From Paraspadella gotoi (taxonomy: Eukaryota; Animalia; Chaetognatha), in assembly GCA_051294375.1 (NCBI GenBank), contig JBJCIZ010000239.1:5723074-5787073 (forward strand): DNA of 64,000 nt, in the 5' to 3' direction. Below the pieces are notes generated by a model. The model did not search any database. It saw only the letters and a list, made by a program, of their open reading frames with translations, and was not told the DNA's origin. Shown piece by piece: positions 9,229-61,386 of this stretch. Made by a program: the position numbers and the translations under genes. Position 1 is the first letter of the stretch, and each line of letters opens with the position of its first letter.

Positions 9229-18068
<8,840 letters not shown>

Positions 18069-19728
18069 CTTCCTCTGTTTTGTTTTGTTAGTTAGATTGG
18101 TTTTGTTTTGTATTTAAAGTATTATGTTAATGTTTATTTAATGTGGTTTGAATCTTCCGAGGCGGAATCTTTAAACAACATCGTCTATTTGTGAGATGTG
18201 TTTCCTTAATTTTTTATGTTTCGATTTTATGTTTCCTTGTTTTGGGGTCGTTTTGTGTTTTTTTTTTTTTAATTTTTCAGCCAGTGGTCATTTCCGGTTC
18301 GGTAGGGCGCTCCAGCGACTCCTCTCTCTGTCTTCCGCTCCTGTCTTTTTTGCTCCTGTCTTTAGCTCCAATCGACCGCAACCTTTTCTCTGATTTTTCT
18401 TCCGTTTGTGTCACAAACGACCACAACAACGACAACAACGACGACGACAAAATTCACACTTTGAGTGACTTTTTTGGTTTCGACTCGAAAGAGTCGCTTC
18501 GATTTTTAACGGAAATCCAAATCTGGAAATAAGAAAATGTGTACATATGTGTTATAATTATTTATTCTCAATTTCTCATTTATATTCACACTTCGGTAAA
18601 CAATAACTAGAATGAACAAAAAAGCGGTTTGCCCAAAGAGAAATCTTGGCAATGAATTCAGTGGCCAAGCAACTTCTAATTTTCTCTCTTGATATTAAGA
18701 TTAGAATATACGTACAATTAAACAATCGAAACATTCTTAGAAAGATTATACCACTTCATAGATAGGGAAGTGAATAAAAAAAAACTATAATAGAGTCTTA
18801 ATTGAAAGCTTACAGGGACCTGTTATGTTATTGTCGTGTGAGAGTGATAGGGGGCATAATTCAAGGCAAGATAGCTTATTTTTTAAATTAATGGATAATC
18901 TTTATATTAGTAATACCAATTTCATATCACTTTGGAGAGATCGGGTCTTTTTTTCCTCAGTTTAGTTGGAGGATGTAGTAGGCGTAATTAATGCAAATGA
19001 TACGATCACGCGAATCAGAAAATTAAACTGAATCAATTTTGTGTTATAGAATAAACGAATGATTCTAGTATTGGGTTTTAGCTGCAGGAAATAACTAAAA
19101 AAAAATATTTTTTATTAAAGAAATAAATCTTAAAACTGACAGAATCGTAAGATCGAAACAACAACAGCAGGTTAAAGAAAAACAACTATTTTTTTTCGAT
19201 TTGTTTTGATTTTAAATTTTATCAAAAATTCAAGATTCGAGTGTTTATTTTACCCTCGCGATGAAAAATTCGCGATAAGAAAGGAACTTTGATTTTATCG
19301 AGTCTTGTTTCAGTTTATTTGTACGAAAACGTTTAAAAAACAACAACAACAACAACAACAAAATCATAAACGTAGTAAAAATAACAAATCGGCAACTAAT
19401 GTCAGCGAGCGTTTATTGCTCGCTTATTCTCACTTTTCACTTAACGAGTCATGACTCAAAATTGAAAAAAAAATGTCGTCTTTTTTTTTCGTCGTTCCAA
19501 CGTTAAAAATTAAAATCTTTTAAAAAAATGTATTCATGATCAAGAAAATAATTATGAAAATCAAATCGGTCGCAACGTCGACTGTTCAAACTGGTTTTTG
19601 CGAGACCAATTTTTTTTTTCATCGAAATTCTGACCCAACGGTTTTTTTTTAGTTCTACCTTTAGTTTTCTCTTCTTTCATTTTTTATGTTCAGACATTTT
19701 TACAGTTTAAAAACACAGACAGAAAAGG

Positions 19729-23307: not shown

Positions 23308-23662
23308 ATGAAATTGGGTAACCAATATAAAAAATCCATTTTAATATAAAAAACTAACTTAAGTCGCCCCTGACTTTTGACAGACATCCTGCATTCATCC
23401 TTCTTACAAGATTATAAAATAAAATTATCATTTCATTCAATAAATCTTACAAGATTATAAAATAAAATTATCATTTCATTCAATAAATCAGCTTTATTGT
23501 CCAGACTTTGGCTATTGTGGTTTACGGCCTTCATTCCTCTTACATTATATGAAATTGGTACAACCAATATAAAAATTATCCATTCATTTAATAAATAAGC
23601 TATCTTGCCCTTGACTTTGGACAGGCTTTGGTGGTTTAAGGTCCTCCATCACTCTTACAAGA
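23308..23662. mobile_element. Family-E ~115-bp repeat, tandem and degenerate copies
   Basis: TATGAAATTGGTACAACC...GGACAGGCTTTGGTGGTTTAAGGCCTCCATCACTCTTACA. Other copies at ~27980-28071, 56463-56573, 56788-56898 and 58387-58500. Confidence 0.8.
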
Positions 23663-24415
23663 TATAGTAGACTTATTTTGAAACAAATATACATATAAAT
23701 ATAATACATATCGCATTGTCCCTTCCAAGTCCACTCCTGCGAATCTCTCAAACGATTTCCCAAAGTGAGTCAATGCTGCGAATTCCGCTGGAATTGTTCG
23801 CAGAAGATCGAGCCTCACTCATTCGGAAGGCAGGGTCTCTTTAACGGAGACCGCGTCGGGTTGGGAAGTGAGTTTCCTCTTGAAGGCAGCGGATGAAGAA
23901 AGTTTAAAGCGAAAGTTTGCTCAAGTGTATCGTAGTAGTTTGGTTGTGCCTCGGTTGTAATACGAGCAGAAAACTAGAAGTTGTATCTTTTGTCAAATTA
24001 ATCAATACGTGTTTTCTGCGGGGCAATTTTTCTCGAAACAAACGCCAAGAAACAAAAGATGTTTCTTTAGAAATCATTCGTGATTCATAAATATTTAATA
24101 ATTGATAAGACATTATTCAAGACGAATCCCAGGTACAAATAGTCACAAAACGGTACAAATTACATACTTACATACTTACATACTTACATTCGTACATACT
24201 TAGTTAAAGAAAAAAACGTGTTTATCTTTTAAAATGTAATTACGAAACAGAAATTACTACGAGTATCATTTGTTTGTTTTTTCTCTCAGCCACTCGCTAC
24301 CTCTGCGACTGCGACGCCCCTTTCGCCCGCTGCCTAAAACTGGCGAAAACAATAGAGACTCACGTTTTGGGTCACATTAACTTCAACGTTCAACGAAGGC
24401 GTTGTTTCAAAGAGG

Positions 24416-25033: not shown

Positions 25034-25267
25034 TGAAGAGACAGTAATTATTGTTATGAGTTAGTGATAGAACCGTTCAATATAAGCAGTCCCTGAGCTT
25101 CGGATCAGGCTGTAACACCATGTTACAGGCGAGTTAAGCGCCCCGTCCCTCTTAACTGCCAGACGACCACCGGGCTAGAACCCCGGACCTTTGGGTTGGG
25201 AGGCGAATGACTTGCCTCCGGCACCAATGGCCGCTGATGAACGGTTGGTGGATTTTAGTCCACCATA
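25034..25267 (+). mobile_element. Family-C solo-LTR-like element (TG...TA, 4-bp TSD TATT) with internal tRNA-like cassette on the minus strand
   Basis: TATT|TGAAGAGAC...GTCCACCATA|TATT. The reverse strand reads GCGGCCATTGGTGCCGG...GGTTCTAGCCCGGTGGTCG. Confidence 0.8.
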
Positions 25268-26042: not shown

Positions 26043-26751
26043 GCTTTTTATAGCGATATATCTAACTTTCTCACTGAACGTTTTTAATTGAACAGAAAAT
26101 TCACCAGGCAATGACGACGTTATTATTAATTCGTAAAAAGGTAAGAAAATACAATATCAGATATTAGATATCGGATATCGATCAAAATGTAATAAAATAC
26201 TTTATCAGATACGTAAGCGCCGCTTCGATAGAAAAATCCGAATTAAATTAAGTGAAACCGAACTGGGATAATTAGAAATTGCGGAAAAAAACCGTGAGAG
26301 GATTCATTCGTTCATTCGTTCATTCGTTCATTCGTTCATTCATTCATTCATTCATTCATTCATTCATTCATTCATTCATTCACTCTTTCGTTATTCTTCT
26401 TTTCTATTTGTCAGTCTATCCTCGTTCACTAATTTTCTGTCACCATTACTTTAGAAATTAGTTCATTCATTCACTAGTTCATTCTTTGACAGTATTTCGT
26501 TCATTCTTTGACAGTCTTTCGTTCATTCTTTGACAGTATATCGTTCGTTCTTTCGACCTCTTTTATCTTCGCTCTTTCGCGGTGATTTTTTTTCCTTCAT
26601 GTTCTTCGAAGAAATTGACTCTCCACTTTGTAGATGTGAATCTAAAGGGGGAAAAAATTAGAGTGAAATCAATTTTAATATTTAAAGTTCTGATAAAATT
26701 CTTACTATTATTATTTTCTCGTCATCATTTTTATGTCTGGACAGCTGTAAA

Positions 26752-27810
26752 TTTTGTATGTAGTCCTATGGAAATGTCTTTTCCCTTTTGTATGTAGTCA
26801 TATGGGAAATTGGGTTGGGTTCCCCTTTTTGTGATGTTAGTTCGTATGGAAATGGCTGTTCCTTTTTGTATGTAGTCCTATGAAAATGGCTGTTCTCTTT
26901 GTATGTAGTCGTATGGAAAATGGCTGTTCCTTTTGTATGTAGTCTAATGGAAATGGCTGTTCATTTTGTATGTAGTTCGTATGGAAATGGATGTCCTTTT
27001 GAATGTAGTCATATGGAAATGGCTGTTCCCTTTTGTATGTAGTCGTATGGAAATGGCTTGTTCCCTTTTTGTATGTAGTCATTATGGAATGGCTGTTCCC
27101 TTTTGTAATGTAGTCGTATGGAAATGGCTGTTCCCTTTTGTATGTAGTCGTATGGAAATGGCTGTTCCCTTTTTGTATGTAGTCATATGGAAATGGTTGT
27201 TCCCTTTTGTATGTAGTCGTATGGAAATGGTTGTTCCTTTTGTATGTAGCATATGAAAATGGCTGTTTCTCTTTGTATGTAGTCGTATGGAAATGGTTGT
27301 TCCCTTTTTAATATGTTAGTCATATGGAATGGCTTTTCCCTTTTGTATGTAGTCGTATGGAAATGGCTGTTCTTTTTGTATGTAGTCATATGGAAATGGC
27401 TGTTCCCTTTTGTATGTAGTCGTATGGAAATGGCTGTTCCCTTTTGTATGTAGTCATATGGAAATGGTTGTTCCCTTTTGTATGTAGTCGTATGGAAATG
27501 GTTGTTTTCCCTTTTGTATGTAGTCATATGAAAATGGCTGTTTCTCTTTTGTATGTAGTCGTATGGAAATGGTTTGTTCCCTTTTGATGTAGTCATATGG
27601 AAATGGCTTTTCCCTTTTGTAATGTAGTAGTATATATGGAAATGGATGTTCCCTTTTGTAATGTAGTCATATGGAAATGGCTGTTTCCCTTTTTTTCTTG
27701 GGGTTAAATTGTAGTGCATATTTGGATAGATATGGTGTTCCCTTTTGTATGTAGTCATACGGAAATGGCTGTTCCCTTTTGTATGCAGTCGTATGGAAAT
27801 GGCTGTTCCC
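26752..27810. repeat. Minisatellite, ~34-35-bp unit, ~30 copies
   Basis: TCCCTTTTGTATGTAGTC(G/A)TATGGAAATGGCTGT head-to-tail with no unique spacers. Confidence 0.95.
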
Positions 27811-28135
27811 TTCTCAATTTTTTTCAATGAGGGTTAGGGACGAGGGTTTAAGGTTTCAAATTAGAGATAAAGTTTGAGGTTTAGGGTTTAAGATAAGGTT
27901 TTGGTTCAAGATTAGAATTAGGTATAAGCTTTAGGGGTTCGGTAAAAAGTTATGAGAATTTGTGAAATTGCTACGACCGATATAAAAATTATCCATTCAT
28001 TTAATAAATAAGCTAGCTTGCCCTTGGCTTTGGACAGGCTTTGGTGGTTTAAGGCCTTCATAACTCTTACAAGCTAATGACATAGAAGTCTCTGCAAGCT
28101 TTCAGTCGTTTTCAATCGTTTTAAATATTTAAGTT

Positions 28136-28384
28136 TGTGGCAGCAAGACTTAAAGCTGCCTCACTGCCTCAGCTTCGTCTCAATGGCTGAGCAGGCTAAA
28201 TCATCTCATTCCATCCGTGCGTCCCGGGTTCAATCCCTGGGTATCCCGGTTCTGGCTTAAATGTGACGGTGCCGGTATAAACATGCCAGTGACAGGAGGC
28301 GGTCACTGAGGGTCCGCAGCCCCTACGCCAGTTGGTGAGATACCCCGCGCCCCGGGTATCACAGGCTATCCTCCCGTTGCCATA
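28136..28384 (+). mobile_element. Family-A solo-LTR-like element with tRNA-like A/B boxes, TSD AGTT
   Basis: AGTT|TGTGGCAGC...GTTGCCATA|AGTT. TGGCTGAGCAGG is A-box-like and GGTTCAATCCC is a B box. Near-identical to 48960-49216. Confidence 0.85.
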
Positions 28385-28851
28385 AGTTTAATATTAAAGT
28401 TAGAAATAAAATTAAAGAACAGAAATCGCTTTTGAAAAAGGAAATCGATAATCAGTTTAACCCTGACTCACCAAGGAGACGGCATACAAGAGGCAAACGA
28501 AGGGAAAGACTCTTCGCGACATAAAACGACAAAATTGGAATTCTTTGTCCACGCAGATAGAGAGGGCGCCTTTTGGGGGGGGGGAACAAAATGGCGGACG
28601 ATAAAAAATGGGGAAATTAGAAAATGTACGATGGGGAAACTGACGAGGGTTTAATGAAAGGGCGAAAACTATGAGATTTTTGTTCATCAAAACGAAATAG
28701 TTTATTTTTAATATTCTTAATGAAGAAGAAATTTTATAAGTTTGAAAATAGTAAAAAAAAAATATGATCTTCATGGAAATAAATATGTTTATTTACGATT
28801 TGTTGACTAAACCATTATTTATTTACATTTAATGACAAAAAATAGTCATAG

Positions 28852-32855: not shown

Positions 32856-33090
32856 TATGGTTGACTAAAATCCAACAATCGTTCATCAGCGACCGTTGGT
32901 TCAGGAGGCAAGTCATTCCCCTCCGCAACCCAAAGGACCGGGTTTCTAGCCCGGTGGTCGCCTAGCAGTTAAGAGGGCTGGGGCGGTTAACCCGCCTGTA
33001 ACACGGTGTTACAGCCTGATCCGAAGCCCAGGGACTGCTTATATTGAACGGTTCTGTCACTAACGCATAACAATGATTACTGTCTCTTCA
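32856..33090 (-). mobile_element. Family-C solo-LTR-like element
   Basis: Reverse complement of 25034-25267. Flanks ACAA/ACAC match at 3 of 4 positions. Confidence 0.85.
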
Positions 33091-41514: not shown

Positions 41515-44500
41515 TCAAGTTCCATCCCGACGCCTCTCCACTTCCCCCACGACGGAGATCAACGCCTCCGGCTTCAGCCAATGACGGGATCGTCCCCCAA
41601 CGCTGCGCCGTCGTGCAGAGAAGCGTCAGGGAGGCGGCGCGGGCGTTCCTAACACCCACGCCTTCCAAGATGGCGTCCTTAGATAGAGGGCGGCGCCGCT
41701 GGTGGCGCTACAGTAGGTCGAGACCTCCCCGATCGATGGATAACGACAATCGAAAGTCGGTCTGAAAAAAAAACAAGTTTGAGCAAACAATGTCGAATCT
41801 GCCTACGATAATTTCGCGGTAATCAGTTAAACAGATGATAATCACGATAATTCTTTGTGATCTCTACAGATCATAACAGATCATAACAAAACAAATCATA
41901 ACAGACTTATTAATAAATCGATGAAAATATCTATCAATCAATTGAACAATAAGTAAAAGAACCTGTGGCTGCGCTTTTAGCGGATTAGACTGAACTTTTA
42001 CTGCAGCACAATTAATATTTTATAATTTAAAAAAATATTTTATCAATAAATATAATATTTTAAACATTTTGTTCATTATTTTTTCTTGCATAATTTTTTT
42101 TTAATTTACAAAATTTTTTTTAACTTGCATTATTTTTTCAACTTATTCAGCCAATCCATCATTTTATCTCAGTGAGAGAGAGAAACATTAAAATTTTAAA
42201 AAAATTCAAGTAAAAGTAATGTTTGCTTTTTTCAATTTAAACTCATTTCCAATGGCACGATTCCATCAAAACTTCAGTTCAATCAGTTCAATCACCTACT
42301 TTCCCACACGCACACTAAATTTAATCTCTATCCATTTATCTAATTATGAGTAATTAGAGTAATTATGAAGTAATATAAGCAAAAAGATTTAAGTAAACCT
42401 GACTTATGATTTTTTCCATTTAAACTCATTTCCACTAGTACGATTCCATCAAAACTTTATATCCAGCTCAATCACACAGGTTCCTACCCAACCACAAAAT
42501 TTCATTCCAATCCAACCATCCAATCACAAGTAATTGGAGTTATTTGCTAGGGTGGGACAGACGGACTGAAGAGAAAAGGCCGGGACCGACGGAGATGGCC
42601 AGATTTGACCCGTTCGACCGATTGACCGATCGACCGGACCGGGACTGACCTGACTCTCTCTCCTCTCTCCCTTTCCCTCTCTCTCTTTTTTTCTATCTCT
42701 CTCCAAACCTTACCTGGACAGACTTTGACAAAACCAAGATCTGTGGATAAGGCGCTACGTGGGCTGAAGAAGACTATCCGTAACTTCTATAACCCCCTCT
42801 AGCAGCCATGGAACGGGTCCCTGGGCTTGGAACCAGGCTTGAGGGTTTGCCATGCCCCCAAGGCGGCTTACGGCCGTCCTCACGCTTCCCGCAGGGTAGG
42901 TACCGGGTTGGGATTGAACCTGGTACCTAGTGGTCATGAGCTGATGGCTGATTCTAGGCGGGGTGAACCTAGGCAATGCCCGACTACAGATCAGATTCAC
43001 TGGATCACTCTCTAGAACGCAAACTACTTTCTTACAAAGTTTTCTACTACGTTGTTACTGAAGATTCCTGATTCCTGATTTCTCTACGACATTTGATTCC
43101 TCTTTGATTGATCTCAATTTTTTCTACGGATTTCGTCTCGTCTTTTACAATTTATTATTTACATTTCGAGCTTCAGTTACATAAAACGTTTTGGGATTCT
43201 TTTCGTCAAGACTAAGTTGCGGCCAAGTGGACCATTCTCACCTCAAGAGGCGCAGAGAGTCAAGCTTCTCTACACGGACGGACATCTTTTTTTTTTTTTT
43301 TGCATAATTTATCATAATTCGATATTCTGACAAGAAATAAATTAATGACCGACAATATTGAGGATGTGGACCGACGGACCGACAAAGTGGATTATAGAGC
43401 CGACTAAAAAAATAAAATCAATTAAAGTTAAATACCTACTTCCATTGTTGATACAATTGGATCAAAAAATAAAATAACACAATCTTAAAAGTATAATAGT
43501 AGTTAAACAACATCATTGCAACTTTCAAAAATAGGAAGATCATGAAATCTATGTACCAGATACACAAACGAATGGAACAAAACAACTTTTTTGCTCAAAT
43601 TTTAAATCTTTTTGATTAATAGAATTAAAGTCAAAACAAAGGAGAACTTTATATTAGTCAGTCTCTGTCAGTCGTAGAGAATTGTTTTAACACCAGTAAA
43701 TATTGTTATCGATATATGGCATCTATCATATATCATCAATTCATCATTATGATAAAGATCACACACTTTACACTCTTGCTTTTTATGTCCCCAGACGTCT
43801 AAAAAACTAAAACCTTATTAAAAAAAAAAAAAACAACACAATTTTTTTCCCCTTTTCAACCTGGATAAGGTAAATACGGCCTCGTTGCTTGGCAACACCA
43901 TCGCGGCGTCCTCCAATCGCGGCCCGAGATTCGGCAACGGACGCAGTGACACGAGATCCACGTCGCAAGGAAACGGCGTCGCGCGTTTCACCGTCAACGC
44001 CGCCGGCGTCTTAGTATCGGCCTGGTCAGGGATTATTAGGTTATTAGGGTTATGGTTTTAAATCCAAAATTGAGAATTAGGGTTTGGATCATAAAGTAGG
44101 TGAGGGTTAGAATAGATATAGATTAGGATTTAAAAAAATAGGGTTAAATCTAAGGGATTATGGTCCAGAAAAGGGCGCTTTTTTTTAAAAAAAAAAGAGA
44201 GAGCCGCAAATAGAACGTACGAACATTTTCTTTTGATTGATTGACTTAATTGATTGATTGTTTTATTGATTTGGTTATTTTACTGATTCGATTTGATCAG
44301 ATTTATTTACTGATTCGATTTGATCAGATTTATTTACTGATTAGAATCTATCAGATTTATTTACTGATTCAATTTTATCAGGTTTTGTTACTGATTTGAT
44401 TTGATCAGATTTATTTACTGATTCGATTCGATGAGATTTATTTACTGATTCGATTCGATGAGATTTATTTAGTGATTCCATTCGATGAGATTTATTTACT

Positions 44501-45647
44501 GATTCGATTTGATCAGATTTATTTACTGATTCGATTCCATCAGATTTATTTACTGATTCAAATTGATCAGATTTATTTATCGATGGATCGACATCAAAAC
44601 AGCTTCCTGTTCACCGCGCGTTTTGCAGTAAAGAAAACTTCCACGGGCGAATTGAGGCGTCGACGGAGTTGATGAGCGCCGACAGAAAGGAGCGGAATCG
44701 CTGGAGCCTTTGTCTCATCCCTTCCGCGCTCCTCCAAGGACAAGTCGTACCGAAGAGTCGAGAGAACATTGTCCTCGACGCCCTCTCCCATCCCGCGGGA
44801 GTCGTCGTTATGCAGGCGCCGATCCTGCATCACCTCCAGGCTGCCGTTGTGCTGCGACGAGGCGCCCTGAGGCTGCGCGGACAGCAGCGTCAAGCGTCTT
44901 CTGCCGCGGGCGCTGATTTGATCTTCAATGAACGCCGCCGATGACATCGGGTAAAAGTTGGCCTGGATGGAAAGCCACAGACCGAAGTTGAAATTATAAA
45001 AAGACCGTTTCATCCAATGTGTTGCGCCGCAGTGACTTTATTTTTATGTGTATTTCTTGTGAAAAGACATGACATGACGTGACATGACATGACTACAATA
45101 ACTTTTTTTGCCTGTGTTTTTATGACACGCACTGCATCAGAATTTCATTTTTTATTTGTTATAGTTTTAGGATTAGGCGTTTAATGCTAAGGGGGAATGG
45201 ACAGACGGACGGACGGCTGGACGGGCGGACTGATGGAAGGACGGACAAGACTTCATTTTTTTGCAGTATTTATCATAATTCGAGTTATTGATATGATAAA
45301 AATGATTTACCGACAAGATTTTTGGGTGGGACCTAGACGAACCCGACAAAGTGAATTATAGAGTCGGAATCTGCTGATAAGCAGATCCGACTAAAAATTT
45401 TTTAAAAAAAAAAAAAAACGTTTTCACTTCTCCCAACGCACAATTTACTGACCTGAATCGGGAGTTTGGCCAATCGTCGTCGCCTCATCATCGCCAGGAC
45501 CTTGGCGTCAGTGAAAAAGTGGGAGCCAGAGTCGATATCTGTATCGATGCGCATCACGGGCTCGAGATTGGTGAATCTCTGTATGAAGTTAAAGTCTTTA
45601 ACTCCAATATAATAAATAATAATAATTAATAATAATAATATAATAAT

Positions 45648-45683
<36 letters not shown>

Positions 45684-47283
45684 AAATAATAATAATAATA
45701 ATAATAATATTATAATAATAATATAATAATAATATTTATATAAATATTAATTTAATTTTATAATATAATATAATAATATTAATATATATATAATAATAAT
45801 AATAATTTTTATAAATTATATTAATGTACCCAAATATACTAATTTACTACTAGCTGCTATTTTTTTTTAATAAGATTAGTTTGTTTTTTATTAAAAATAT
45901 GTCTAGGGTTTAAATTAATTTAATGTCAATGTTATACAAAGTTTTATATTTTAAAAAAGATTTATAGTTTAAAAATTTATTCCTTAAAATATTCAATTTT
46001 TTTAATTTAAGAATTAAATTTAATTTAATTTATTATCAATTTGTTTGAATTTATTGTAAATAATGTTTCTCTTCTTAATTTTAGCAAATTAGATCATAAA
46101 ATTGTCTGCTATATTTCTGTTTTAAAGCTATTTTCGTTAATTAAAAATTGCCTACTTTTATTCAGTTAACTACTAGGTAAACAAACAAAAAATTGTCTAT
46201 TACCTATAAGAAAATATCTTTACCTAAGTTCTATCTTCCAACCTCTTTCTTTTGTTATCATTCTATCCAACCATCCTTCTCTCCCACTATCTTTTTATCC
46301 TTCAACCCTAACAAACCCTTTGAGCAAAACGCGGTTGGTGATGCGAAGGGATCGACGCAACACAGAGTCTTCGCAGGATTGAGGCGATAAAGAGGACAGC
46401 TCGCCGTCCACCCTCCGCCCTCCCACCATTTCTACAAAGTGCTCGATCATGGGAAACACGACTCTGACCGTCGTCACCAATGGACCCGCAATGATCACGG
46501 CCATCAGCGGTGAAGAACTTTTATTTGCAAGGCCCGAAGGTTGGAATAGATACGCGCCGCCTCTGACTGACGGATACCACAAAAACCTATAAGAGATAAA
46601 CTTCTCAACTTTTGTCTGTCTGTCTGTTTGTCCGTCCGTCCGTCCGTCCGTCCCACCTTAGCAAAAAACACCAATTAATTGTGATTGGATCGATGGATTA
46701 GAATTAGATTTTGTGTGTGGGTAGGGAAGTGTGTGATTGATCCGGATATGAAGTTTCGATGGAATCGTGCGAGTGGAAATGAGTTTAAATGGGAAAAACA
46801 AAAAAATATATTTCACTATTTGAATGCCAATTACTCGTGAGTGGATGCGGCGATTGACTTGATATTTTGTATATGGGTAGGAGAGTGTGTGATTAAGCTG
46901 AAAATCAATTTTTGATGGAATCGTCTGAGTGGAAATGAGTTTAAATGGAAAAAGCAAAAAACCTGTTTCACTAATTAATTATGCCTTTTTTCCTTTTATA
47001 ATAAGTGTAAATGCAAGATGTATTAATTAATCAAATATTAGTCAGTTTATTAATCAATTAGTCAATTAATTAATCAATAATTTATTAATCAGTCAATTAA
47101 TCAATCAGTTAATTATTCAATCAATCAATTTATTTATATATTAATTAATTATTCAATCAATCAATTTATTTATTAATTAATTAATTATTTAATCAATCAA
47201 TCAAGTCAATCGTTATCGGCATTATTGTCATCGTCGCCATCATCGTTGCTTTTGTCGGGTCAAGAGCGTTTATATTGTTTGGT

Positions 47284-47333
<50 letters not shown>

Positions 47334-50300
47334 AAACGAAATAAAAACATGATGTTGCGATTGCAAAATGATAACATGCACAAATGCGATGCCTAATTTT
47401 ACGAGTTGCAAAATGATGCAAAATGATGCAAGTTGAAAAAATGAAGCGAATTGTAAAAATAATGCAAATTTAAAAAATTATGTGAGTTGAAAAAATGATG
47501 TGTGGAAAAAATGATGCGAGTTGAAAAATTCATGCGAGTTGAAAAAATGATGCGAGTTAAAAAAATTTTTACAAAAATTGTGATTTATCATCTGATTAGC
47601 TGATTACCGCTTAATTATCGTAGGCAGATCCGACATTGTTTGCTCAAACTTGTTATAAAAATTTTATTAAGTTTTAGATTTAAAAAAAAAAAAATTCAAA
47701 TCATTTTAGTTACGTTATGGGATTGTTCGTGTAGTCTTCTAGAAATAGAAGGAGCATCTTTATAGGTTGTTTATGCTCATTGTATATCTGTAGTATATAA
47801 ATTAACATTCTGTTACTGCAATTTACGATCTCTTTCAGTAGTAATTAATATTTTGTATTCGTCAAGTAGGTATATTAATTAGTTCAGCTAAGTGTGCTAT
47901 TATTCAGGAACCCGGGATTACTCCCTCTTACAAACCCTATTTGCGCCACGAGATTCGACCGTCCCTCCGACGTCGCTACGATCATTCGTCTCAACAGCCC
48001 CCGGGGCCAGTCGAATTCGGCCGCTAGACAACCGTTGGTCAGCGTGATGCGGCTTCTGACGGGCCAACGGTTCAGGGATATGGGAAACTCGGTTGATTTA
48101 TTTGTGAGTTTTTCGTGGCCGACATCGTTTAAAACGGTAAGAGCAGCTAAGTGAAACTTGGAAACGTTCTCTCTCGATGAGGACGTGATAATGGAATGAA
48201 TGTACAGCCTCTTTATTTCAAAAGGTTCCATCTCTGCTTCGAAGACCAACTCATAGAGACCCGCCTGAGGTTTCCCTAGATTTGACCAGACCGGGTCGAT
48301 CTGGTGGCGCAAGATCTTCGCCGTCGTCTTAACTTCGACGTCAAACCGATTGATCCGCAGTCGAATTATCTCCCGTCGTGCAAAGGGAAGCGCGTTGGCC
48401 AATATGATAACAGTAATAGAGGGAGCCAAGCCTCGGATGTCCACGATGACGGGTTCCACTCCCACCGACTTTTGATTGGCCAAAAGGGTCACTCGAAGCG
48501 GCTCATCAACATCGCCTCCTTCCCGAAAAGTCCTTGATTCCATAAGCGACCAAACGGCCCCCACCAGCGCCCTCTGCGCCTTGACGAAACCTTCACAAAG
48601 GCGTCGCGCAATGTCGGCGGCATTGTGTTCCTTGGAAGTGCCGGTAACATCGTCGTGGTGTTGGAAAAGGGCGAGCTCTTGATGGGCGGAGCGGAGATCT
48701 TGAAATTCGCGGACCTGTGGTCGGGTAATGCAGCCAGTTCACCCCGCCCTTAAGCATGACACCTTCGGTTATGACCCCGATTGTTTATTGAGTAAATCTC
48801 ATAAGGTACCGGCATCGATACCCAAAGGTAACTAACTACCCAATGGGAAGCGTGAGGACACCCGGAATCCAACCAAGCCTGGTTCCAAGCCCAGGATATA
48901 TGTTCCTTTACTGGTGACTGGTGAGGGTCGTTAAGCGAGTTAAGGATGATTTATCCATGTGTGGCAGCAAGACTTAAAGCTGCCTCACTGCTGTCCGTCC
49001 TCAGCCTCGTCTCAATGGCTGAGCAGGCTAAATCATCTCATTCCATCCGTGCATCCCGGGTTCAATCCCTGGGTATCCCGGTTCTGGCTTAAATGTGACG
49101 GTGCCGGTATAAACATGCCAGTGACAGGAGGCGGTCACTGAGGGTCCGCAGCCCCTACGCCAGTTGGTGAGATACCCCGCGCCCCGGGTATCACAGGCTA
49201 TCCTCCCGTTGCCATACATGTACCTTTTTGTCACGGCGTGAGGGAGGACCGTCGCGGGCGCCGGCAGCGAGAGTGAAGAATACATCGGCTGCGCGGAGGA
49301 GGGACTCGAGGCGGCGGCCGAGGACTTTCCAAGCCATTCGGGAAGTGAAGTAGCTGCGGAAGAAGAATGGCCTTTTTTTTTTTTACAAAAATGCCTCATT
49401 TCGTCTTTAATTTAGATTTAGTTCTTCAGCATTAACCTTAAAAGGCTAAGGATTTAATTAAAGATTTGGTTAGGGATAGGTTAAGAGTAGGGGGAAGTGA
49501 AAGTTTAGTTTAGTTTAGCAGTTATATCTTGAAAACTATCCTATTGGTGAATACTAATCTGTAATTATTTTTTTTTTTACAAATATGGTAGCCTGGTCAG
49601 CTTATTTTATATATAGTATATTATTACCCTTATATAATATTAAAATTTCAAAATAGTTTATTTTTAAATTCTAAGAACAGATTCAGATTCCTTGTTAAAA
49701 GTTGATAAAGGAAAATATAAATCTTTTTCAAAAATTATGTCATTAAAAAGGTTAAAATTACAAAAAACTATATTTTGAAACTAAAAATTGAAAATCGGAG
49801 TCTTAAATATAGTTTTTTACATTTTTGACCAACTTAATGAAAAATTTTTTAAAAAAGAATTATACTTTCTTTTATCAACTTTTTGCAAGAAATCCAAATC
49901 CGATCTTAAATTTAAAAAAATTGTATTTTAAAATTTTAGCTTATTATACAGGGTTCGGACTTAAAACTTACCCCCATAAGAAAAATTATTATTTACTTTA
50001 ATTATTTGTACTTAATGATATATCTGAAAAATTTAGTTTTATCAATTATTTGATTGGTCATTTTAGTACATGTTTACCTTATGTCAGCTACTCGTTTATG
50101 AAGTATACCTTACTTAGGACCCTTCCAAAGATGAGTAGACGATATGAAAAATTCTTTACATTTTTGCTACCATTGTATATTCAATAATGGGTCAAGATTG
50201 ATGTAATTCCGGTTACAAGTACTGTTGAGTGTTACATTTAATTCGCCCCATACTGCAATACCCAAATGATTTTAGATTTTGCATTATATGGGGCATAATG

Positions 50301-53300
50301 CCCTGAGGCCAAAATTTAGAGAAATTATATTAAAAAAAATCTTACTTTATACTAGTAGCTGAGCATATTATATTGTATAAATAATATAGATATACCTCAA
50401 ATTACTGCAGCATACTGCAGCTTTAATTTTCTTTTAAGAAATAAAATTATAAAGTACTAACTGATTTATATTGTGTGCTATACAGTTTTGGCTTATGCTA
50501 ATAATTTGATTTTTTGGTTGAGAATTCCTTTTAAGGTATTTTAATAGCGCACAAGGTACAAATTTTTTATCTCATTAACTACAAAAGTTAGATGAAAGTT
50601 ATCATTACAACTTTTTGACATTTTAATAATTTATCTATGATAATTAACAAAAACTATAAAATTTAATGAATGATGATGATGATGATTTTTTAAGGGTTTT
50701 TCAAATTTTAGCCCATTTATCATTACATTTTTTTAAATTTGTAGTAATAACCTTTATCTAACTTTTTAATCTTTATCAGAATTCATTTAAAAAAATTTAA
50801 ATTTCCTAAAAAATTTTTTAAGCATTTCTTATATATTGTTAAATATTAATATGCTTCCATGAGGAAAATTAATTTAATCAAAATTTAACATCATAAGTCA
50901 ATTTGGTTGTAAAAAGACAAAATACTTTTATCGCAGACTTTTTCATATTGTAAAAAAATGTTAAATTCTGGCCCGCCTTACTACTTACCCACTCCAATAA
51001 TCGTCGTCGAAATCACTGTATGTGAAGAAATCTCCGCCAAATATCTTCAGCTGAGAAACCTCCCCCAAGTCCTCGTCAGCCATTTGAAAGTATTCCGACA
51101 GTGTCCCGAACTTAGCCGTCGCGCCCATTTCCTCAGAGCGGGCATTGATATAATTGAAGATCTTGTTCCAGTTTTCAAACTGCCGATCAAACTGAGATGA
51201 TTGAATGAAGCGAAAATCATCGCCAAATATCACCAGCACAACATTGTGCTTAAACCACAGCGACTTTTTTCTAAGTTGATCAAGCAGCTTGATTGCCTGA
51301 TCATGAATGTTTACAGGCCCAATGGTTGGTGCTGAATTTGGTCTCCAAAAATCATATTCTACGCAAATCCAATAGTAAGGGCCGCAAGAATGTTTGATGG
51401 TGTAGGTATAGAGAGGGTTCAATGAAACCCGAAGATCGTCAATGCCCTCAACATCCCACTCTTGGCGCCAAACAAACTCAGCGTCTGCATTTTTATCCAA
51501 AAACTCTTTTATCTTGTAGTGGATTCGATTTATGAAGGAACGCTTGAGACCAGCTAATGATCTAATCCTAGCCGCTGTCGCTGAATGACCAAAAGGGTCA
51601 ATGTTAAAGCTCGTCTTTGGCGCAAATCCCAATTTTTGTCTGAGAAAAAGATGGCCTTCCAGCATCTGGTCAATGAGCGAGTAGACTGTGGGGTTAGCTT
51701 CGTCCGGCATTACCCAACCTCCACCAACGATCTCAAATCGGCCCTCCTTTATTGGCATGATTTTTTTTAAAAGCGCCCCCCTGTTTGTTCCATAATCTTT
51801 AAATCTATATTTAATCCTAATATCTAACCCTAATATTTAACTACCCCGTGTCCGTTCGAGAGTGACACCAAAAAAATCTTTACTATACTTTAAATATTTA
51901 GTAAACATAATTCATAAGTATATCATTAGTTGCAGAACTACTTGAAGTTTGTTATGTATAAGTTTCATTTCGTTTTTAATTTACTATTCTTTGTTTAATT
52001 TTTTATCTAACACAGTAAAATTAGCAAAAAAAGACAATTTTAGGCGTGTTCTTGATTGAATTTTAAAAATATTTTATATCATAAGAAATCCCTATTAATG
52101 GTCTAATCAATGAATTATCGTAATGTTGAGTAATTTTTCAGTAATGATTTTTCATTGATTTTTTTAATTGTTAATCTTAAGTTTTCTTTATACAATTCGT
52201 CCAATTAGAAAAAAATGCTATCCTGACCATGTTCTTGACTGTTTTGAATAATTATTTTATATTGTAAGGATTCCCAGATAATTATTAATTTAATGGCGTA
52301 AATGAATTTTAATAATTTTAAGTATTTAATGAATAATAAATTTATAATGATTTTCTTTTTTTAAAAGATTCAGTTCTTTACTGAAGATGAAATTGGATGA
52401 CCATATTTAAGGAAATATCAAATTAATCTTATGAAATTAAAATATAATAAACGTCAAGTACTTTGCTACAGAATGAAGAAAAAAAATTTAAAAAATATTT
52501 ATCCAATGAGAAATGGTACGCATTTTTTTGGTGTCACTCGCGAACCCTACCCTGAATCCCTCAACCTGTACAGTAGGGTGGATTGATGAAAAGATTGAGT
52601 GATTGAACATTATTTTTTTGCTGCCTATGGACATGTAAATAATAAATTTTAAATCATTTTAAAAACAATTTTAACATAACATATAGTAAATTCAATTATT
52701 TATGTAGTAATATCCTTATAAAATCGTTAAATTTTAAAATTTTTATTTTTATTTTTAAGAACAGATTTGGATTCGCCGTAAAAAACTAAGAAACTTTTAT
52801 AAAATATGTCATATGATATTTTAATGTTTGGATCACAAAAAATGACTAAAACATTTTAACATATATAAGTTTCTACAACAAAGAATAAAAAAGTCATAAA
52901 TTTTAACCTTTTTTCCGGTTTTAAACGCTGATGATGACAGAATTTTTGATAAGATGTTTTATATTTTTGATTCAACTTTTCATAAAGAATCTGAATCTTT
53001 ATAAAAAGTTTTTAAAAATTTTTTTTAAAAATTTATTATTTTATAAGAATATTACTACAAATTTATTATATTTTACTATTCTGTTCCCGAGACAATATGA
53101 ATAAAATATTTTTTGTACTAGTTAATCATAATATCTCACATCTAAATATCCTTGTTCGATCATTCAAATAAATTTTTTTGTTCTTGAGTGTTCCACTCTA
53201 CTATACAGAACCCTAATCCCTAATATAGTCCCCAGCAAATTCCTAACTTTAAACCCTATCCATAATTTTTAACCTTATCGCCTAACTTAACTTTAGACAT

Positions 53301-53873
53301 AACAAGTTTGAGCAAACAATGTTGGATCTGCCTACGATAATTAGGCGGTAATAAGCTAATCCGATGATAAATCACGGTAATATTTTCTGACTTTCATAAC
53401 AAATTGTAACATAACAAATTATAACAGACTTCTTAATAAATCTATAAATCAATTGACCTATCAATCATTACCATTAGCTGCGCCAATACCAACTTGCATA
53501 ATTTAGTCAAATTGCATAATTTGGTAATTTTGCATAATTTTGTCAATTTGCATAATTTGGTCAGATTGAATAATTGCATAATTTAATTAAGTTGCATTAT
53601 TTGGTAAACTGGTATAATTTGGTAAACTGGCATAATTTGGTCAACTGGCATAATTTGGTCAACTGACATAATTTGGTCAACTGGCATAATTTGGTCAACT
53701 GGCATAATTTGCTCAACTGGTATAATTTGGTCAACTGGCATAATTTGCTCAACTGGCAAAATTTTGTCAACCGGCATAATTTGCTCAGCTGGCATAATTT
53801 GCTCAACTGGCATAATTTGGTCAACTTGCAGAATTTGGTCATTTGAATAATTTTGTCAACTTCCATAATTTGG

Positions 53874-53906
<33 letters not shown>

Positions 53907-56900
53907 CAGAGAGAGATAGAGAGAGGGAAACTTTTAAAAATTAAAATAAATGTGTCTTTTAGTTTTCTAATTTAAACTCTTTTCCACTTTCATTTCCTTT
54001 TATCTATCAAATTTTTAATGAATTTAATAATTATGAGTAAATATAAGTAAAAATACTTCAAGTAAATATAACTTTTGTTTTTTTCATTTAAACTCGCGCG
54101 ATTTCTTCGAAACTTTATATCCACCTCAATCATACACTTTCCTACCCACACAGAAAATTTCATTCCAATCCAATCCAATCACGAGTAATTAAAGTTTAAT
54201 GAAAAGTTGGGACGGACCGACAGACAATGTTCTGATATGATAAAAATTATTTACCGACAAGATTTTGGGGTGGGACCGACGGACCGACAAAGTGAATTAT
54301 ACAGTAAGGCGTAGTAAAATTTCTAAATTTAACTTTAATTAAAATTTTAAAAGTGAGGAACGAACAACATTATACTAATGAACATTTATGTATAAAAAAA
54401 ATTTTAATAAATTTTACAATTTACGCAGTAGGCTATATTTATACTAGTACTAATGCAATAAATGTTAAAATTTTAAAACAGTTTTTTCTCAGATTTTTTT
54501 GCAGATTTGTATTCGTCATAAAAAGTTGATAAAAAGAAATATAACTCTTTCTGAAAAATTGGAAAAACCTATATTTTAAGCTGAAAATTCAAATTTTATA
54601 TATTAATATTTAATTTTTAACCAACTTAATGAAAGAATTTTTAAAAATGATTTATATTTTCTTTTCTCAACTTTTGACGAGGAATTCAAATCTGCAATCA
54701 AAATTAAGAAAAGCCTATTTTGAAATTTTTCGAATATATAAAAATACTATTCTAAGTTTTGATTCACTATCCTGTAGAGTCGAGATCTGCTGATAAGCAG
54801 ATCCGACTAAAAACTAAATCAACCTAAAATTTAGGCTGAAATGGGGCGCTTTCGGAAAATATGATCCCTTGATTAAAGTTTTCATCATGTCGCGCATCGT
54901 CGTGTTTGCAATATCCCACCACCAGGAAAGGTAAATCGACTCGGCCCAGATGAAAGTCAATTTTTTATATTGATGGAGTTTGACAACCGCGTTGGTGATG
55001 ACGTGAAACGAGTCCTCGAAAGCAGGGGGCGTGTAAAGAAATGGCGACTCCTTCCCTCCCCACCACAAATGATTTGGTGGGCTGCCTTTAAAAGGCAAAG
55101 TGATATCAAGACCCCTCTATTAGCAAAGAAAATTGCTATAGAATAGATCAAGTAATTATAGACTTAAAATTAACATTATTTGAGTCGGTATTTTGCTTTC
55201 CCATGGAATCGCGATTTTAAAATTATCAAATAATTTTTTTTTTTATGTAGACTGATAAAAATTATCTCTCTCTTAACGGCCTCTTCTTTTTGGTTTTTCT
55301 TTGTTTGCGCTATACATTGGAACCATGAAAACAAAAAAAGTTGACCGGAATATGACTCACAAGAGCGATCAAATGATAACTAAAAAATTATAGGAACTTT
55401 TCAGATAAAATCGATTTTAATCATATATTTTAGATAATTATAGTATAAATTTTTAAATAGTATAATAGTTTTTATCATTATTAATATTTATTTCAATAAT
55501 ATTATTAATAATAACATTATTATTATACTGATTGAATTTAATTAAACTTGCTTATTAACCTATTTATTCGTAAATTTTTTTGTTATTTGGCTTAACCTTA
55601 ACCCTATCTCATATTAAATGTGGCCAGTCAGTTTAGCCTTTTTAACTTAAAAAAGTTTTATTAAACAAACTTTTATAATATTTAATATAAGAGGCTAATA
55701 AGTAATAATTCATTCCAATCCATCCATCCAATCACGAGTAATTGGAGTTTTTTTTTCTAAAGTGGGACGGATGGACGAACGGACGGACAGACAGACGGAC
55801 GGACATCGTTCTTTTGTATAATTTATCATAATTCGATGTTCTGACATGATTTAAGTGAATGCCCAACAAGATTGAGGGGGCGGACCGATGGACCGACAAA
55901 GTGAATTATAAGCAGATCCGACTAAAATATTGCTTATATTGAACGGTTCTGTCACTAACACATAACAATAATTACTGTCTCTTCATTGGTGAGCCCGACT
56001 TCCGAACAGAACAGCAACAACAACACTTTCAGGCGACATGCCTCAACCTGGCGATGCACTTTCCGCCAACAACAATTCACAGAAGAGACGCAACAGACTT
56101 CTTCCTACAGGAGGGGGGGATGTATGGAGGACTAAAATCCACCAACCGTTCATCAGCGGCCATTGGTGCCGGAGCCAAGTCATTCGCCTCCCAACCCAAA
56201 GGTCCGGGGTTCTAGCCCAGTGGTTGCCTAGCAGTTAAGAGGGACGGGGCGCTTAACCCGTCTGTAACACGTTACAGCCTGATCCGAAGCTCAGGGACTG
56301 CTTATATTGAACGGTTTTGTCACTAACACATAACAATAATTACTGTCCAATGTACTGTCCAATGTATAGAGCAAACAAAAAAAAAATTAGAAGAGGTTGT
56401 TAAGAGAGAACTAATGTGGTTATTGATTTTTGGTAGATCTATTGATTATCGCAGGATAACAGTATGAAATTGGTACAACCAAAATAAAAATTATCTATTC
56501 ATTTAATAAATAAGCTATCTTGTCCCTGACTTTGGACAGGCTTTGGTAGTTTAAGGCCTCCATCACTCTTACAAGATAATGACTTGGCAGGTCCTTGCAA
56601 GCTTTCAATCAAGACTCTCTCACAGTCTCGTTTATTCACTCCCAAAGTACCTGGCTTCCCTATCAATGAAGTGGTATAATATTTCAAAGAATGTTTCAAT
56701 TGTATGAAAAGACCACTCTCTCAAGTATTAGATCGGGGAATACTTATTGTACTCCGCACTAGCATCAAAATACAAGGAGCTGAATTTTATGATATTGGTA
56801 CAACCATTATAAAAAATATCCATTTATTTAATAAATAAGCTATCTTGCCCTTGATTTTGGGCAGGCTTTGGTGGTTTAAGGCCTCCATCACTCTTACAAG

Positions 56901-57475
56901 ATGAGATTTTTTTGTGGAGGTTCTCAACCCCTCTACACGCCCTGCGTCAGACCCTCTACACGCCCCTGCCTCGAAAAAGTGTTCCGCGGCCGTCTTGTGC
57001 CATCCCGGGTCCGTGTGTGAAAAAGGCACGAGAACGATACGCAACGGGTCATCCCGCCGTCGCGAATCGCTGTAGTTCATGTCAACTTTGTCCCAGTCTT
57101 TATCTCCGCCCCCGCGTCCAGGCATTCGAAGTGACTCGTAAAGTCGAAGGCTTGAAATGTCGACGGAGGCTTTGCGTAGATCGTTGGAGCATTTCATCGA
57201 TTCCTCCTAGACCATTGAGGAAATTTATTTGAAGCAAATAGACCGGGCATTGTAAACTACTCTTTACTGTATATGCTAAATTGAGGTCCCCTTTAGGCTT
57301 TACTCTTAGTTACCCGTTTGGCGACCTTGGTTAAACTGGAATATCCGTCATTGGCCAGAGGAAAATTCCATAAGCAATACCAGTAGACTAGGAGGAACAG
57401 TAGGAAGGTGAGAAGCACCCAGCGATAGTAAATCTTGATTCGGAGGAGCATTAAAACGAATCTTGAGCGAATCAT
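41515..57475 (-). CDS. MAN2A: Golgi alpha-mannosidase II (GH38, MAN2A-like); exons 57475-57314, 57206-56970, 55014-54868, 51746-50989, 49353-49224, 48714-47936, 46586-46317, 45576-45453, 44962-44615, 44021-43861, 41761-~41515
   Basis: N-terminal type II anchor. Motifs VPFSHTDPGW, FIWAE, EIVGGGWVMPDEA, IDPFGHS, RIHY, GDDFR, YWSGYFTSR, LFQHHDDVTGT, GAYLF, QANFYPM, DRRLHNDDSRGMGEGV. The last exon has apparent indels. The symbol is family-level. Confidence 0.92.
42742..42988. mobile_element. Family-B solo-LTR-like element, intact, TSD GATC
   Basis: GATC|TGTGGATAAGG...CCCGACTACA|GATC, 247 bp. The reverse strand carries GGTTCAATCCC and GGTTCCAAGCCC T-arm-like hairpins. Confidence 0.88.
44280..44580. 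repeat. Minisatellite, ~27-bp unit
   Basis: TTTACTGATTCGATTTGATCAGATTTA repeated. Confidence 0.9.
45010..45396 (+). mobile_element. DINE-1/HINE-like Helentron-associated repeat
   Basis: GGAC/AGAC microsatellite, core TTTATCATAATTCG...GACAAAGTGAATTATAG, and 3' hairpin AGTCGGAATCTGC-TGATAA-GCAGATCCGACT plus an A run. Further copies at ~42240-42570, 43270-43410, 46615-46970, 54030-54300, 55710-55925 and 60590-60950. Confidence 0.65.
46588..47932 (-). mobile_element. TG...TA element (TGTAAGAG/CTCTTATA), TSD GGTT, coextensive with intron 46587-47935
   Basis: Minus strand: ATA G GGTT TGTAAGAG ... CTCTTATA GGTT TTTG TGG. Confidence 0.75.
48716..49220 (-). mobile_element. Family-B-related LTR-like element filling intron 48715-49223, with family A nested at 48960-49216 (TSD CATG)
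   Basis: Ends CCCGACCACA|GGTC on the minus strand. Shares GGAAGCGTGAGGACA and CAAGCCTGGTTCCAAGCCCAGGA with 42742-42988. Confidence 0.82.
51843..52554. mobile_element. Nested MITE
   Basis: GTTCGAGAGTGACACCAAAAAAAT ... ATTTTTTTGGTGTCACTCGCGAAC inverted repeats around an AT-rich interior. Confidence 0.7.
52569..53205. mobile_element. Nested Tc1/mariner-like MITE
   Basis: TA-CAGTAGGGTGGA ... TCCACTCTACTA-TA. Confidence 0.5.
53490..53878. repeat. Minisatellite, 18-bp unit
   Basis: CATAATTTGGTCAACTGG, about 20 copies. Confidence 0.92.
55022..56969. mobile_element. TIR element (GCAGGGG(G)CGTGTA.AG) with perfect 7-bp TSD TTTCGAG, coextensive with intron 55015-56969
   Basis: Minus strand: TTTCGAG|GCAGGGGCGTGTAGAG ... 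CTTTACACGCCCCCTGC TTTCGAG|GAC. Confidence 0.85.
56123..56347 (-). mobile_element. Family-C element (tRNA-like cassette on + strand, ~56156-56227); partial second copy at 55931-55986
   Basis: Reverse complement of 25034-25267. Confidence 0.85.
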
Positions 57476-60099: not shown

Positions 60100-60171
60100 C
60101 TCAAAGATGTGAGAGAGAAATCTCCATCGGCGGAAATCGAGGTCGAGGAAAAGAAAATTTCGCGCGTGCGT

Positions 60172-60572
60172 GGTTGTGGATATCTTTGTGGACATCGTTG
60201 TGAACATCGTTGTGGATATCTTTGTGGACATCGTTGTAGATATCTTTGTGGACATTATTGTGAACATCGTTGTGGATATCTTTGTGGACATCGTTGTGAA
60301 TATTTTTGTGGATATCGGTATGTTGACTATCTTTGTGGACATCTTTGTGGACATCGTTGTGGATATCTTTTGGAGGACATCGTTGTGGATATCTTTGTGG
60401 ACATCTTTGTGGACATCGTTGTGGATATCTTTGAGGACATCGTTGTGGATATCTTTGTGACATCATTGTGGACATCGTATGTGGATATCTTTTTTTTTTT
60501 TTTTTTTTTTTTTCTAAGACATCGTTGTGGATATCTTTGTGGACATCTTTGTGGACATTGTTGTGGATATCT
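60172..60572. repeat. Minisatellite, 12-bp units (GTGGATATCTTT / GTGGACATCGTT)
   Basis: Direct tandem array. Confidence 0.92.
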
Positions 60573-61386
60573 TTTTTTTATTGCTTAAAATTGCAGATTC
60601 CGACTCTATAATTCACTTGGTCGGTCCGTCGGTCCCACCCCAAAATCTTGTCGGTCAATAATTTATATCATATCAAAAGGATCATTATGATAAATTATGC
60701 AAAAAAAAAATGATGTCCGTCTGTCCATTCGTCCGTCCGTCTTTCTGTAGGTCCGTCCGTCCCCCCCTTATCAAAAAACTCCAATTACTCGTGATTGGAT
60801 CGGGAGAAACGTGTGTGATTGAGCTGGATATAAAGTTTCGAATAGTTTATCATAATTCGATGTTCTGTCAATGATTTAAGTCAATGACCGACAACATTGT
60901 TGGGGGCGAACCGACGGACCGACAAAGTGCTGATAAGCGGATCTGACAAATAATATTCCTTAACTTCCAAGAACGACGGAGACTCCTCGCTCTCCCGCGG
61001 GACTTTTGCTATAAAAAGTGAAAGTTTTCTCGAAATATGTCTTCTCTTATAAAATGGTCTTTTTTTCTGTAATCGGGTATTGTCAAACTAACTAATGCTT
61101 GAGCAAAAAAATGTCAATACCCTGAGTAAATACAAGGTGAATATTATTAGAAACCAGCGGTTTTATAACATTAAATTTGTCATTTTTTTTTCATTCAACT
61201 TGTGATTTTTCTATTTGTAATTCAAACACAACGAAAGAAACTGATTCTCCTCCTCCTCCTCCTCTTCCTCCTTCCTATCCTCTTTGGTCTTTATTTTCTC
61301 CTTATCTATCCCCTTCTTCTATCCCCTTCTTCTATCAAAACAAATCTTTTCCCCTTGGCCTCTATCTTTAAGAGATATTCTTCCTC

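Follow-up and report, generated by a model that had tools for sequence, protein, structure and literature searches.

What kind of element carries the internal promoter boxes of a tRNA gene within a unit of about 250 bp that otherwise resembles a solo long terminal repeat (LTR)? The question arises at positions 28132..28388 of a 64,000-nt stretch of the Paraspadella gotoi genome (contig JBJCIZ010000239.1), the whole of which is called the window here. A sequence-only reading had described this repeat, termed family A, as the LTR of a recently active, tRNA-bearing terminal-repeat retrotransposon in miniature (TRIM). The termini, the fixed target site duplications (TSDs), the promoter boxes and the near-identity of the copies speak for that description, which had missed a predicted type-P5 twister ribozyme in the same unit. 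On balance, the favoured explanation is that the two copies are solo LTRs of a small non-autonomous, RNA polymerase III (Pol III)-driven, Helenus-like TRIM in which tRNA-type boxes are joined to the predicted twister. That family A is an LTR-TRIM is, taken by itself, quite probable.

The two near-identical copies reported earlier are both present, with two substitutions and a single 8-nt indel between them:

28132..28135, + strand: left TSD AGTT of family A copy 1
28136..28384, + strand: family A copy 1, a 249-bp solo-LTR-like unit
28385..28388, + strand: right TSD AGTT of copy 1
48956-48959 and 49217-49220: TSD CATG of copy 2
48960..49216, + strand: family A copy 2, 257 bp
49084-49163: predicted twister within copy 2, cut predicted at 49110^49111

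Both TSDs are perfect, 4 bp long and distinct, as had been stated; a 6-bp reading is possible at copy 1 but breaks down at copy 2. The termini are TGT...ATA, and the inverted ends noted earlier pair at 7 of 9 positions over the terminal 9-mers. The near-identity and intact TSDs of the copies fit recent activity, and no third copy occurs in the 64-kb window. The earlier distinction from a short interspersed element (SINE) also stands: the tRNA-like head is internal in both copies, there is no poly-A tail, and the TSD is 4 bp in 2/2 copies, which does not correspond to a tRNA-derived SINE. A single 21-kb element bounded by both copies was rejected on two grounds: the copies have separate TSDs, and exons of the host stand between them (the host sequence of the window includes exons encoding FERM and GH38 mannosidase). 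Copy 2 stands in antisense orientation within an intron of the GH38 mannosidase gene, at the end of a copy of another family, C, in which it is nested.

The internal boxes had also been recognized correctly, and the B box is enclosed by a T-arm:

28184-28195, + strand: A box, fitting the TRGCY..YGG motif of Helenus LTRs (motif from PMC10886601)
28224-28240, + strand: T-arm hairpin of 5 bp enclosing the B box, pair probabilities 0.63-0.98
28227-28237, + strand: B box

The boxes lie 43 nt apart, and a pair at 35-65 nt spacing never appeared when the element was dinucleotide-shuffled 40,000 times, the A-box pattern having been composed after the sequence was seen and hence being partly fitted. 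ARAGORN found no tRNA gene in the window at its default score and no tRNA in either family A copy down to -ps80, and Rfam gave no tRNA match for family A at E<=10. At -ps70 ARAGORN labels the twister itself a tRNA, and therefore its calls at relaxed score carry no weight. Because neither ARAGORN nor the Rfam covariance models give a tRNA match, the tRNA part is a promoter remnant that has degenerated, and a functional tRNA gene was rejected on the same results. The sequence-only reading had named a lack of tRNA-model similarity as a reason to doubt itself, and these scans bear out that doubt in part. About 40 nt with a TG start precede the tRNA-like part, and about 145 nt lie 3' of the B box.

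It is in this 3' portion that the predicted ribozyme is located:

28252..28331, + strand: predicted type-P5 twister ribozyme, 3' of the B box
28252-28256/28327-28331: P5
28261-28264/28281-28284: P2, 4 bp
28265-28269: L1 strand, with predicted general base G28265
28267-28269/28314-28316: T1 pseudoknot
28270..28277, + strand: P1 segment, 8 nt, self-complementary, loop-less, with one G-U pair
28278..28280, + strand: UAA, predicted cleavage 28278^28279 (site from PMC8501958)
28285-28286/28319-28320: T2 pseudoknot
28288-28293/28302-28307: P3, 6 bp
28309-28312/28321-28324: P4, 4 bp

With segment definitions taken from PMC8501958 and the strands followed in the circularly permuted P5 order, all helices are in place, as are the two pseudoknots and the two catalytic residues (G28265, in the 3' strand of L1, and the UAA at the cut). 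Statements on the literature refer here and below to the portions of the cited papers that were consulted. Strand order, UAA site, general base G, P2, P4, T1 and T2 are shared with type-P5 twisters (RF02684; PMC5408937, PMC11662667), and P3 and P5, optional in that type, are both present. The T1 pseudoknot is CCG/CGG, which replaces the usual CCC/GGG and also occurs in phage Twister-P5 loci. The single core deviation is A-to-C at the trans A.A pair, a change that, like a poor P1, had no significant effect in vitro in natural type P1 constructs (PMC11662667). The type-P1 alignment given by Rfam was rejected because it lacks a downstream T1 partner, while the P5 order gives one upstream.

A generic strict twister descriptor, which uses published features only (T1 free but complementary) and was composed after the sequence was seen, matches only the two family A copies in the window, with no match in 355 window shuffles and none in 99,231 element shuffles. 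The motif pattern of family A finds 51 phage loci; when 20 of them were scanned with Rfam, 12 reached the gathering score of Twister-P5 at the site, one lay just below it, two gave weak twister-P1 matches and five gave no match. A motif match by itself does not entail the stems, because 0/45 matches in JGI metagenomes satisfy the pairing descriptor; a loose L4 pattern in viral contigs returns mostly chance matches (1/120 passes the descriptor), and BLAST of families A-D against JGI metagenomes gave none. In several contigs of phage, two or three P5 twisters occur within a few kb of one another (L035:1-56 and 498-554), and further loci in such clustered sets are L146, L147 and L158, as well as L139, L140 and L161. 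The whole-unit folding energy of family A (z -1.5) is not informative. The twister fold of family A is very probably real, and the predicted ribozyme is probably active.

The same P5 twister fold is found in three further repeat families of the window (B, C and D), which share little other sequence with A:

42742..42988, - strand: family C, complete 247-bp unit, ends TGT...ACA, TSD GATC, B box, P5 twister fold
16115..16320, - strand: family C, 5'-truncated copy with twister fold
48716..48959, + strand: family C, older copy, degenerate twister at 48838-48901, TSD matching at 3/4 positions
25034..25266, - strand: family B, tRNA-like head and P5 twister fold
32857-33090 and 56118-56347, both + strand: further family B copies, with fragments near 5044, 21052 and 39634
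56463..56703, - strand: family D, P5 twister fold, T1 CCA/UGG, T2 AC/GU
near 18830, 23494, 23602, 28015, 56842 and 58440: further family D copies

The T1 pseudoknot is UCC/GGA in family C and CCG/CGG in family B, whose tRNA-like head draws a weak ARAGORN call at relaxed score. In B, C and D, P2 has 3 bp and its 5'-lying strand carries a one-base bulge, against 4 bp in A; it has 4 bp in all 61 phage parses, the phage patterns having a fixed 4-nt P2. Over 10 copies of the four families, 93% of cells pair, compared with at most 47% in slid-partner controls, and 8/10 pairs, T1 and T2 included, have changed on both sides; as the families are related, this covariation represents about four independent lineages. 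A model whose training set comprised families B, C and D alone aligns from end to end with each A copy (15.1 bits; window E 0.0044) and finds 18 window loci at E<0.005, nine of them training rows. At Rfam gathering thresholds the 64-kb window contains no twister, and its best Rfam match is a family D copy (Twister-P5, 30.6 bits, E 0.018, cut-off 37.6). Many family D copies begin near P5, and some are tandem. Head-to-tail degenerate units of ~120 bp (23310-23665, - strand) and two copies 325 bp apart (56463-56905, - strand) may be multimeric products or a remnant of an LTR-internal-LTR arrangement. Both family A copies adjoin another twister-bearing family, copy 1 lying 28 bp from family D and copy 2 at the very end of family C (juxtaposed regions 27959-28135 and 48716-48959, respectively), which, with two cases only, is possibly a target preference.

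The P1 segment sets these twisters apart. It is 6-8 nt long, self-complementary and loop-less in all four window families, and its inner tetramer is palindromic in three different sequences. Among words of the same length taken from these elements, only 2-5% are self-complementary. The segment is unable to fold alone, and its self-duplex reaches -8.3 to -10.9 kcal/mol across the families (-10.9 in family A). Type-P5 twisters in phage have instead a P1 hairpin of 14-27 nt (60/61 distinct parses, the remaining one being an alternative parse), in contrast to the short palindrome found here in an animal mobile element. By analogy, the palindromic P1 hints at pairing between two element copies. Hammerheads with helix III reduced to a palindrome work as dimers (PMC4209133), and the dimeric minimal hammerheads carried by Penelope elements and by metazoan retrozymes resemble family A in having a stem cut to a palindrome that can form only between copies, although there the stem is helix III in non-LTR elements and here it is P1 of a twister (PMC4209133, PMC7229834). 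A natural dimeric twister was not found in the literature searched, most subscription papers being outside its reach, and with the same limit no LTR or TRIM element with a twister was found.

The known system closest to family A has to be sought among TRIMs with Pol III promoters. Ajax, given earlier as the tRNA-bearing group, was the wrong name: Ajax carries 5S sequence and generates 5-bp TSDs, while the TRIMs with tRNA-like LTRs are Helenus, which in animals have TSDs of 4 bp and whose partner is likely Gypsy (Kojima 2024, PMC10886601). As to Ajax and Cassandra, a 5S match is absent in the Rfam scans and the TSD of family A is 4 bp. With Helenus (TRIMp3), family A shares a short LTR-like unit, A and B boxes, a TG start, a 4-bp TSD and solo copies; its unit length lies inside the Helenus LTR range, and likeness to a tRNA exists at motif level only. 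Helenus ends are TG...CA and those of family A are TGT...ATA; some Helenus LTRs end in ATA as well, and the complete family C copy has TGT...ACA. Most of the animal Helenus LTRs consulted have their tRNA-like part close to the 3' end, usually with a T run after it, whereas in family A it lies in the 5' half and is followed by the twister, with no T run. For Helenus itself, Pol III transcription has not been validated, according to the portions consulted (PMC10886601).

A ribozyme is never mentioned in the main text of that paper, and five twister L4 motifs gave no twister-like match in its supplement, where line breaks may conceal motifs. The LTRs of Helenus-2_SyJa and Helenus-2_SyUm (Synergus) in the supplement, however, read by eye only, have a tRNA-like head at the 5' side and, at the 3' side, the core of a type III hammerhead whose loops are complementary, in full elements with a primer binding site (PBS) as well as a polypurine tract (PPT); this hammerhead, too, is absent from the main text (PMC10886601). 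No hammerhead is matched by Rfam in the window, and family A holds the twister fold instead. Plant LTR retrozymes are another close system: they resemble family A, as explained here, in being non-coding LTR elements that would have in common a ribozyme in each LTR, 4-bp TSDs, solo LTRs and a Gypsy partner (PMC4918200, PMC7761336), and in both the ribozyme lies in a blocked fold. They differ in their type III hammerhead, in that no tRNA-type promoter is described in the text consulted, and in that circles have been shown (PMC4918200, PMC7761336). The T-variant twisters of the Perere-3 RTE element are similarly tied to an animal retrotransposon (PMC8501958, Liu et al. 2021), but they are of type P1 and stand 5'-terminally in an autonomous non-LTR element with the TSD abutting the cut site (PMC8501958), while the family A twister is internal, of type P5 and placed in an LTR-like unit. 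In the literature searched, twisters in retroelements occur only at the 5' ends of RTE long interspersed elements (LINEs). Judging from its sequence, family A is likely a member of Helenus, and it would operate as an LTR retrozyme does, with transcription from a Helenus-type promoter. The single parts are all known; what appears to be new is that promoter and twister are combined, as well as the loop-less P1.

Several results weigh against the favoured explanation. For the ribozyme, Rfam gives family A a weak twister-P1 match (17.6 bits, E 0.59, cut-off 67.2) and no Twister-P5 match, and a twister model trained on phage loci gives a non-significant 10.3 bits (E 1.3), with score lost at the P3 insertion and the absent P1 loop. 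With pseudoknots uncounted, the twister helices lie ~9 kcal/mol above the minimum-energy fold in the full unit and 3.4 kcal/mol above it in the core alone, and P2 and P5 have a pair probability of 0.0 in the full unit. P1 is dispensable in other twisters, so that dependence on a dimer may not hold (PMC11662667). For the LTR nature, paired LTRs with PBS and PPT around a short internal part, which the earlier reading had led one to expect, were looked for and not found in the 64-kb window; its six-frame translation shows no convincing motif of a reverse transcriptase, integrase or gag partner, and 0/10 window open reading frames scanned match a corresponding Pfam family. The 3' end of family A is ATA rather than ACA, the ends and TSD of family B are unclean, and family D lacks a clean 4-bp TSD and resembles non-LTR retrozymes in its 5'-short and its tandem copies. 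There is no T4 run in the family A unit, but such absence is expected in 59-94% of shuffles; the missing T runs were therefore dropped as evidence for Pol III read-through.

These points have to be weighed together with the alternatives that they might serve. An unlikely one, though the best of them, is that the ~250-bp unit is the whole element, LTR-only or circle-derived, and was put in by an LTR-type integrase with no internal region. The complete copies A1, A2, C2 and C3 are indeed all single units with their own TSDs, and the retrozyme model permits solo-LTR-sized complementary DNAs (cDNAs) from a circle (PMC4918200). However, no PBS is seen by eye in or beside the unit, and four solos per 64 kb are equally expected if the family is Helenus-like, since solo LTRs commonly outnumber full elements there (PMC10886601). 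Rather improbable is a SINE-like or non-LTR retrozyme with tRNA promoter and ribozyme and a LINE or Penelope partner, comparable to the hammerhead SINEs of Schistosoma. Such repeats do combine a Pol III promoter with a ribozyme (PMC6765202), and the state of families B and D described above agrees with it, but the ends are exact and the TSDs 4 bp long at both A copies and at C2, larger TSDs and tandem arrays are the pattern in metazoan non-LTR retrozymes (PMC7229834), and the stretch of ~40 nt upstream of the tRNA-like part and the absence of a tail do not suit it. The LTR nature of the favoured explanation is supported by the 4-bp TSDs at both A copies and by the complete family C copy, with its TGT...ACA ends and 4-bp TSD.

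More improbable again is that family A is an otherwise ordinary solo LTR of Helenus type and its twister a passenger picked up by capture, either inactive or without relevance to transposition. The low Rfam and phage-model scores and the fold being unfavoured in the unit context would agree with this, but the four diverged families retain the fold with compensatory changes in both pseudoknots, which indicates selection at the RNA level. A non-autonomous Ginger-type DNA transposon bearing an RNA module is very improbable, since Ginger has TGTNR ends and 4-bp TSDs but terminal inverted repeats of 40-270 bp (PMC2836005) against an imperfect 9 bp in family A, and promoter plus ribozyme imply an RNA intermediate.

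The 509-bp GH38 mannosidase intron (48715-49223, - strand) consists wholly of the old family C copy with the nested A copy 2. Its donor comes from one TSD and its acceptor from the element end and the other, 3/4 matching TSD, and the flanking exons join in frame and match positions 2-34 and 43-87 of Pfam Alpha-mann_mid. This intron was likely gained through insertion of a solo LTR, as its sequence suggests; intron gain by such insertion has been reported for other elements (PMC12130899). Other repeats of the window include tandem arrays at 26732-27833 (~34-bp units), 44214-44638 (~27), 53442-53881 (~18) and 60156-60601 (~12), and three dispersed families without a twister match (41772-41940, 47577-47656 and 53299-53467; 42198-42569, 46613-47010 and 54002-54305; 43274-43409, 45176-45374, 55709-55936 and 60593-60962).

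For the favoured Helenus-like TRIM, the following mechanism may be proposed. The full element would be LTR-PBS-internal-PPT-LTR, and Pol III would start just ahead of the A box in the 5' LTR and then read through. A terminator is awkward for a Pol III-driven LTR element because the same signal stands in both LTRs, and the ribozyme would take its place: the twister in each LTR would cut the same U^A, which would yield a unit-length RNA with 5'-OH and cyclic-phosphate ends to be circularised by a host ligase. A Gypsy-type partner would then reverse-transcribe the RNA and integrate the product, giving rise to a 4-bp TSD, in line with the model for plant LTR retrozymes (PMC4918200, PMC7761336), and solo LTRs would arise by recombination or from short cDNAs. 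The palindromic P1 may pair between the two LTR copies, so that cutting would be favoured in two-LTR transcripts. The parallel Synergus Helenus-2 LTRs, with their by-eye hammerhead, support the design of promoter plus ribozyme. The circle route, which is argued by analogy, stands at about even chances. A further step, that family A belongs to an animal lineage of LTR retrozymes with a twister in place of the hammerhead, a captured tRNA promoter and a natural dimeric twister completed by the copy in the other LTR, is put forward tentatively and may well be wrong.

Recent papers, in the portions consulted, treat LTR retrozymes as mainly plant elements defined by hammerheads. Family A joins two groups held separate, TRIMs with Pol III promoters (Helenus, Cassandra) and LTR retrozymes, and it would extend the role of twister ribozymes to LTR-type elements. 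A transcript that Pol III begins in one LTR has to be ended in an identical one, and family A suggests a testable way in which this can happen. Moreover, reduced-P1 twisters escape the standard Rfam thresholds, as the local model's 18 loci against none at gathering show. If the proposed explanation is true, then, together with Synergus Helenus-2, LTRs combining a promoter with a ribozyme would be a recurrent, overlooked design that yields circular RNA in animals.
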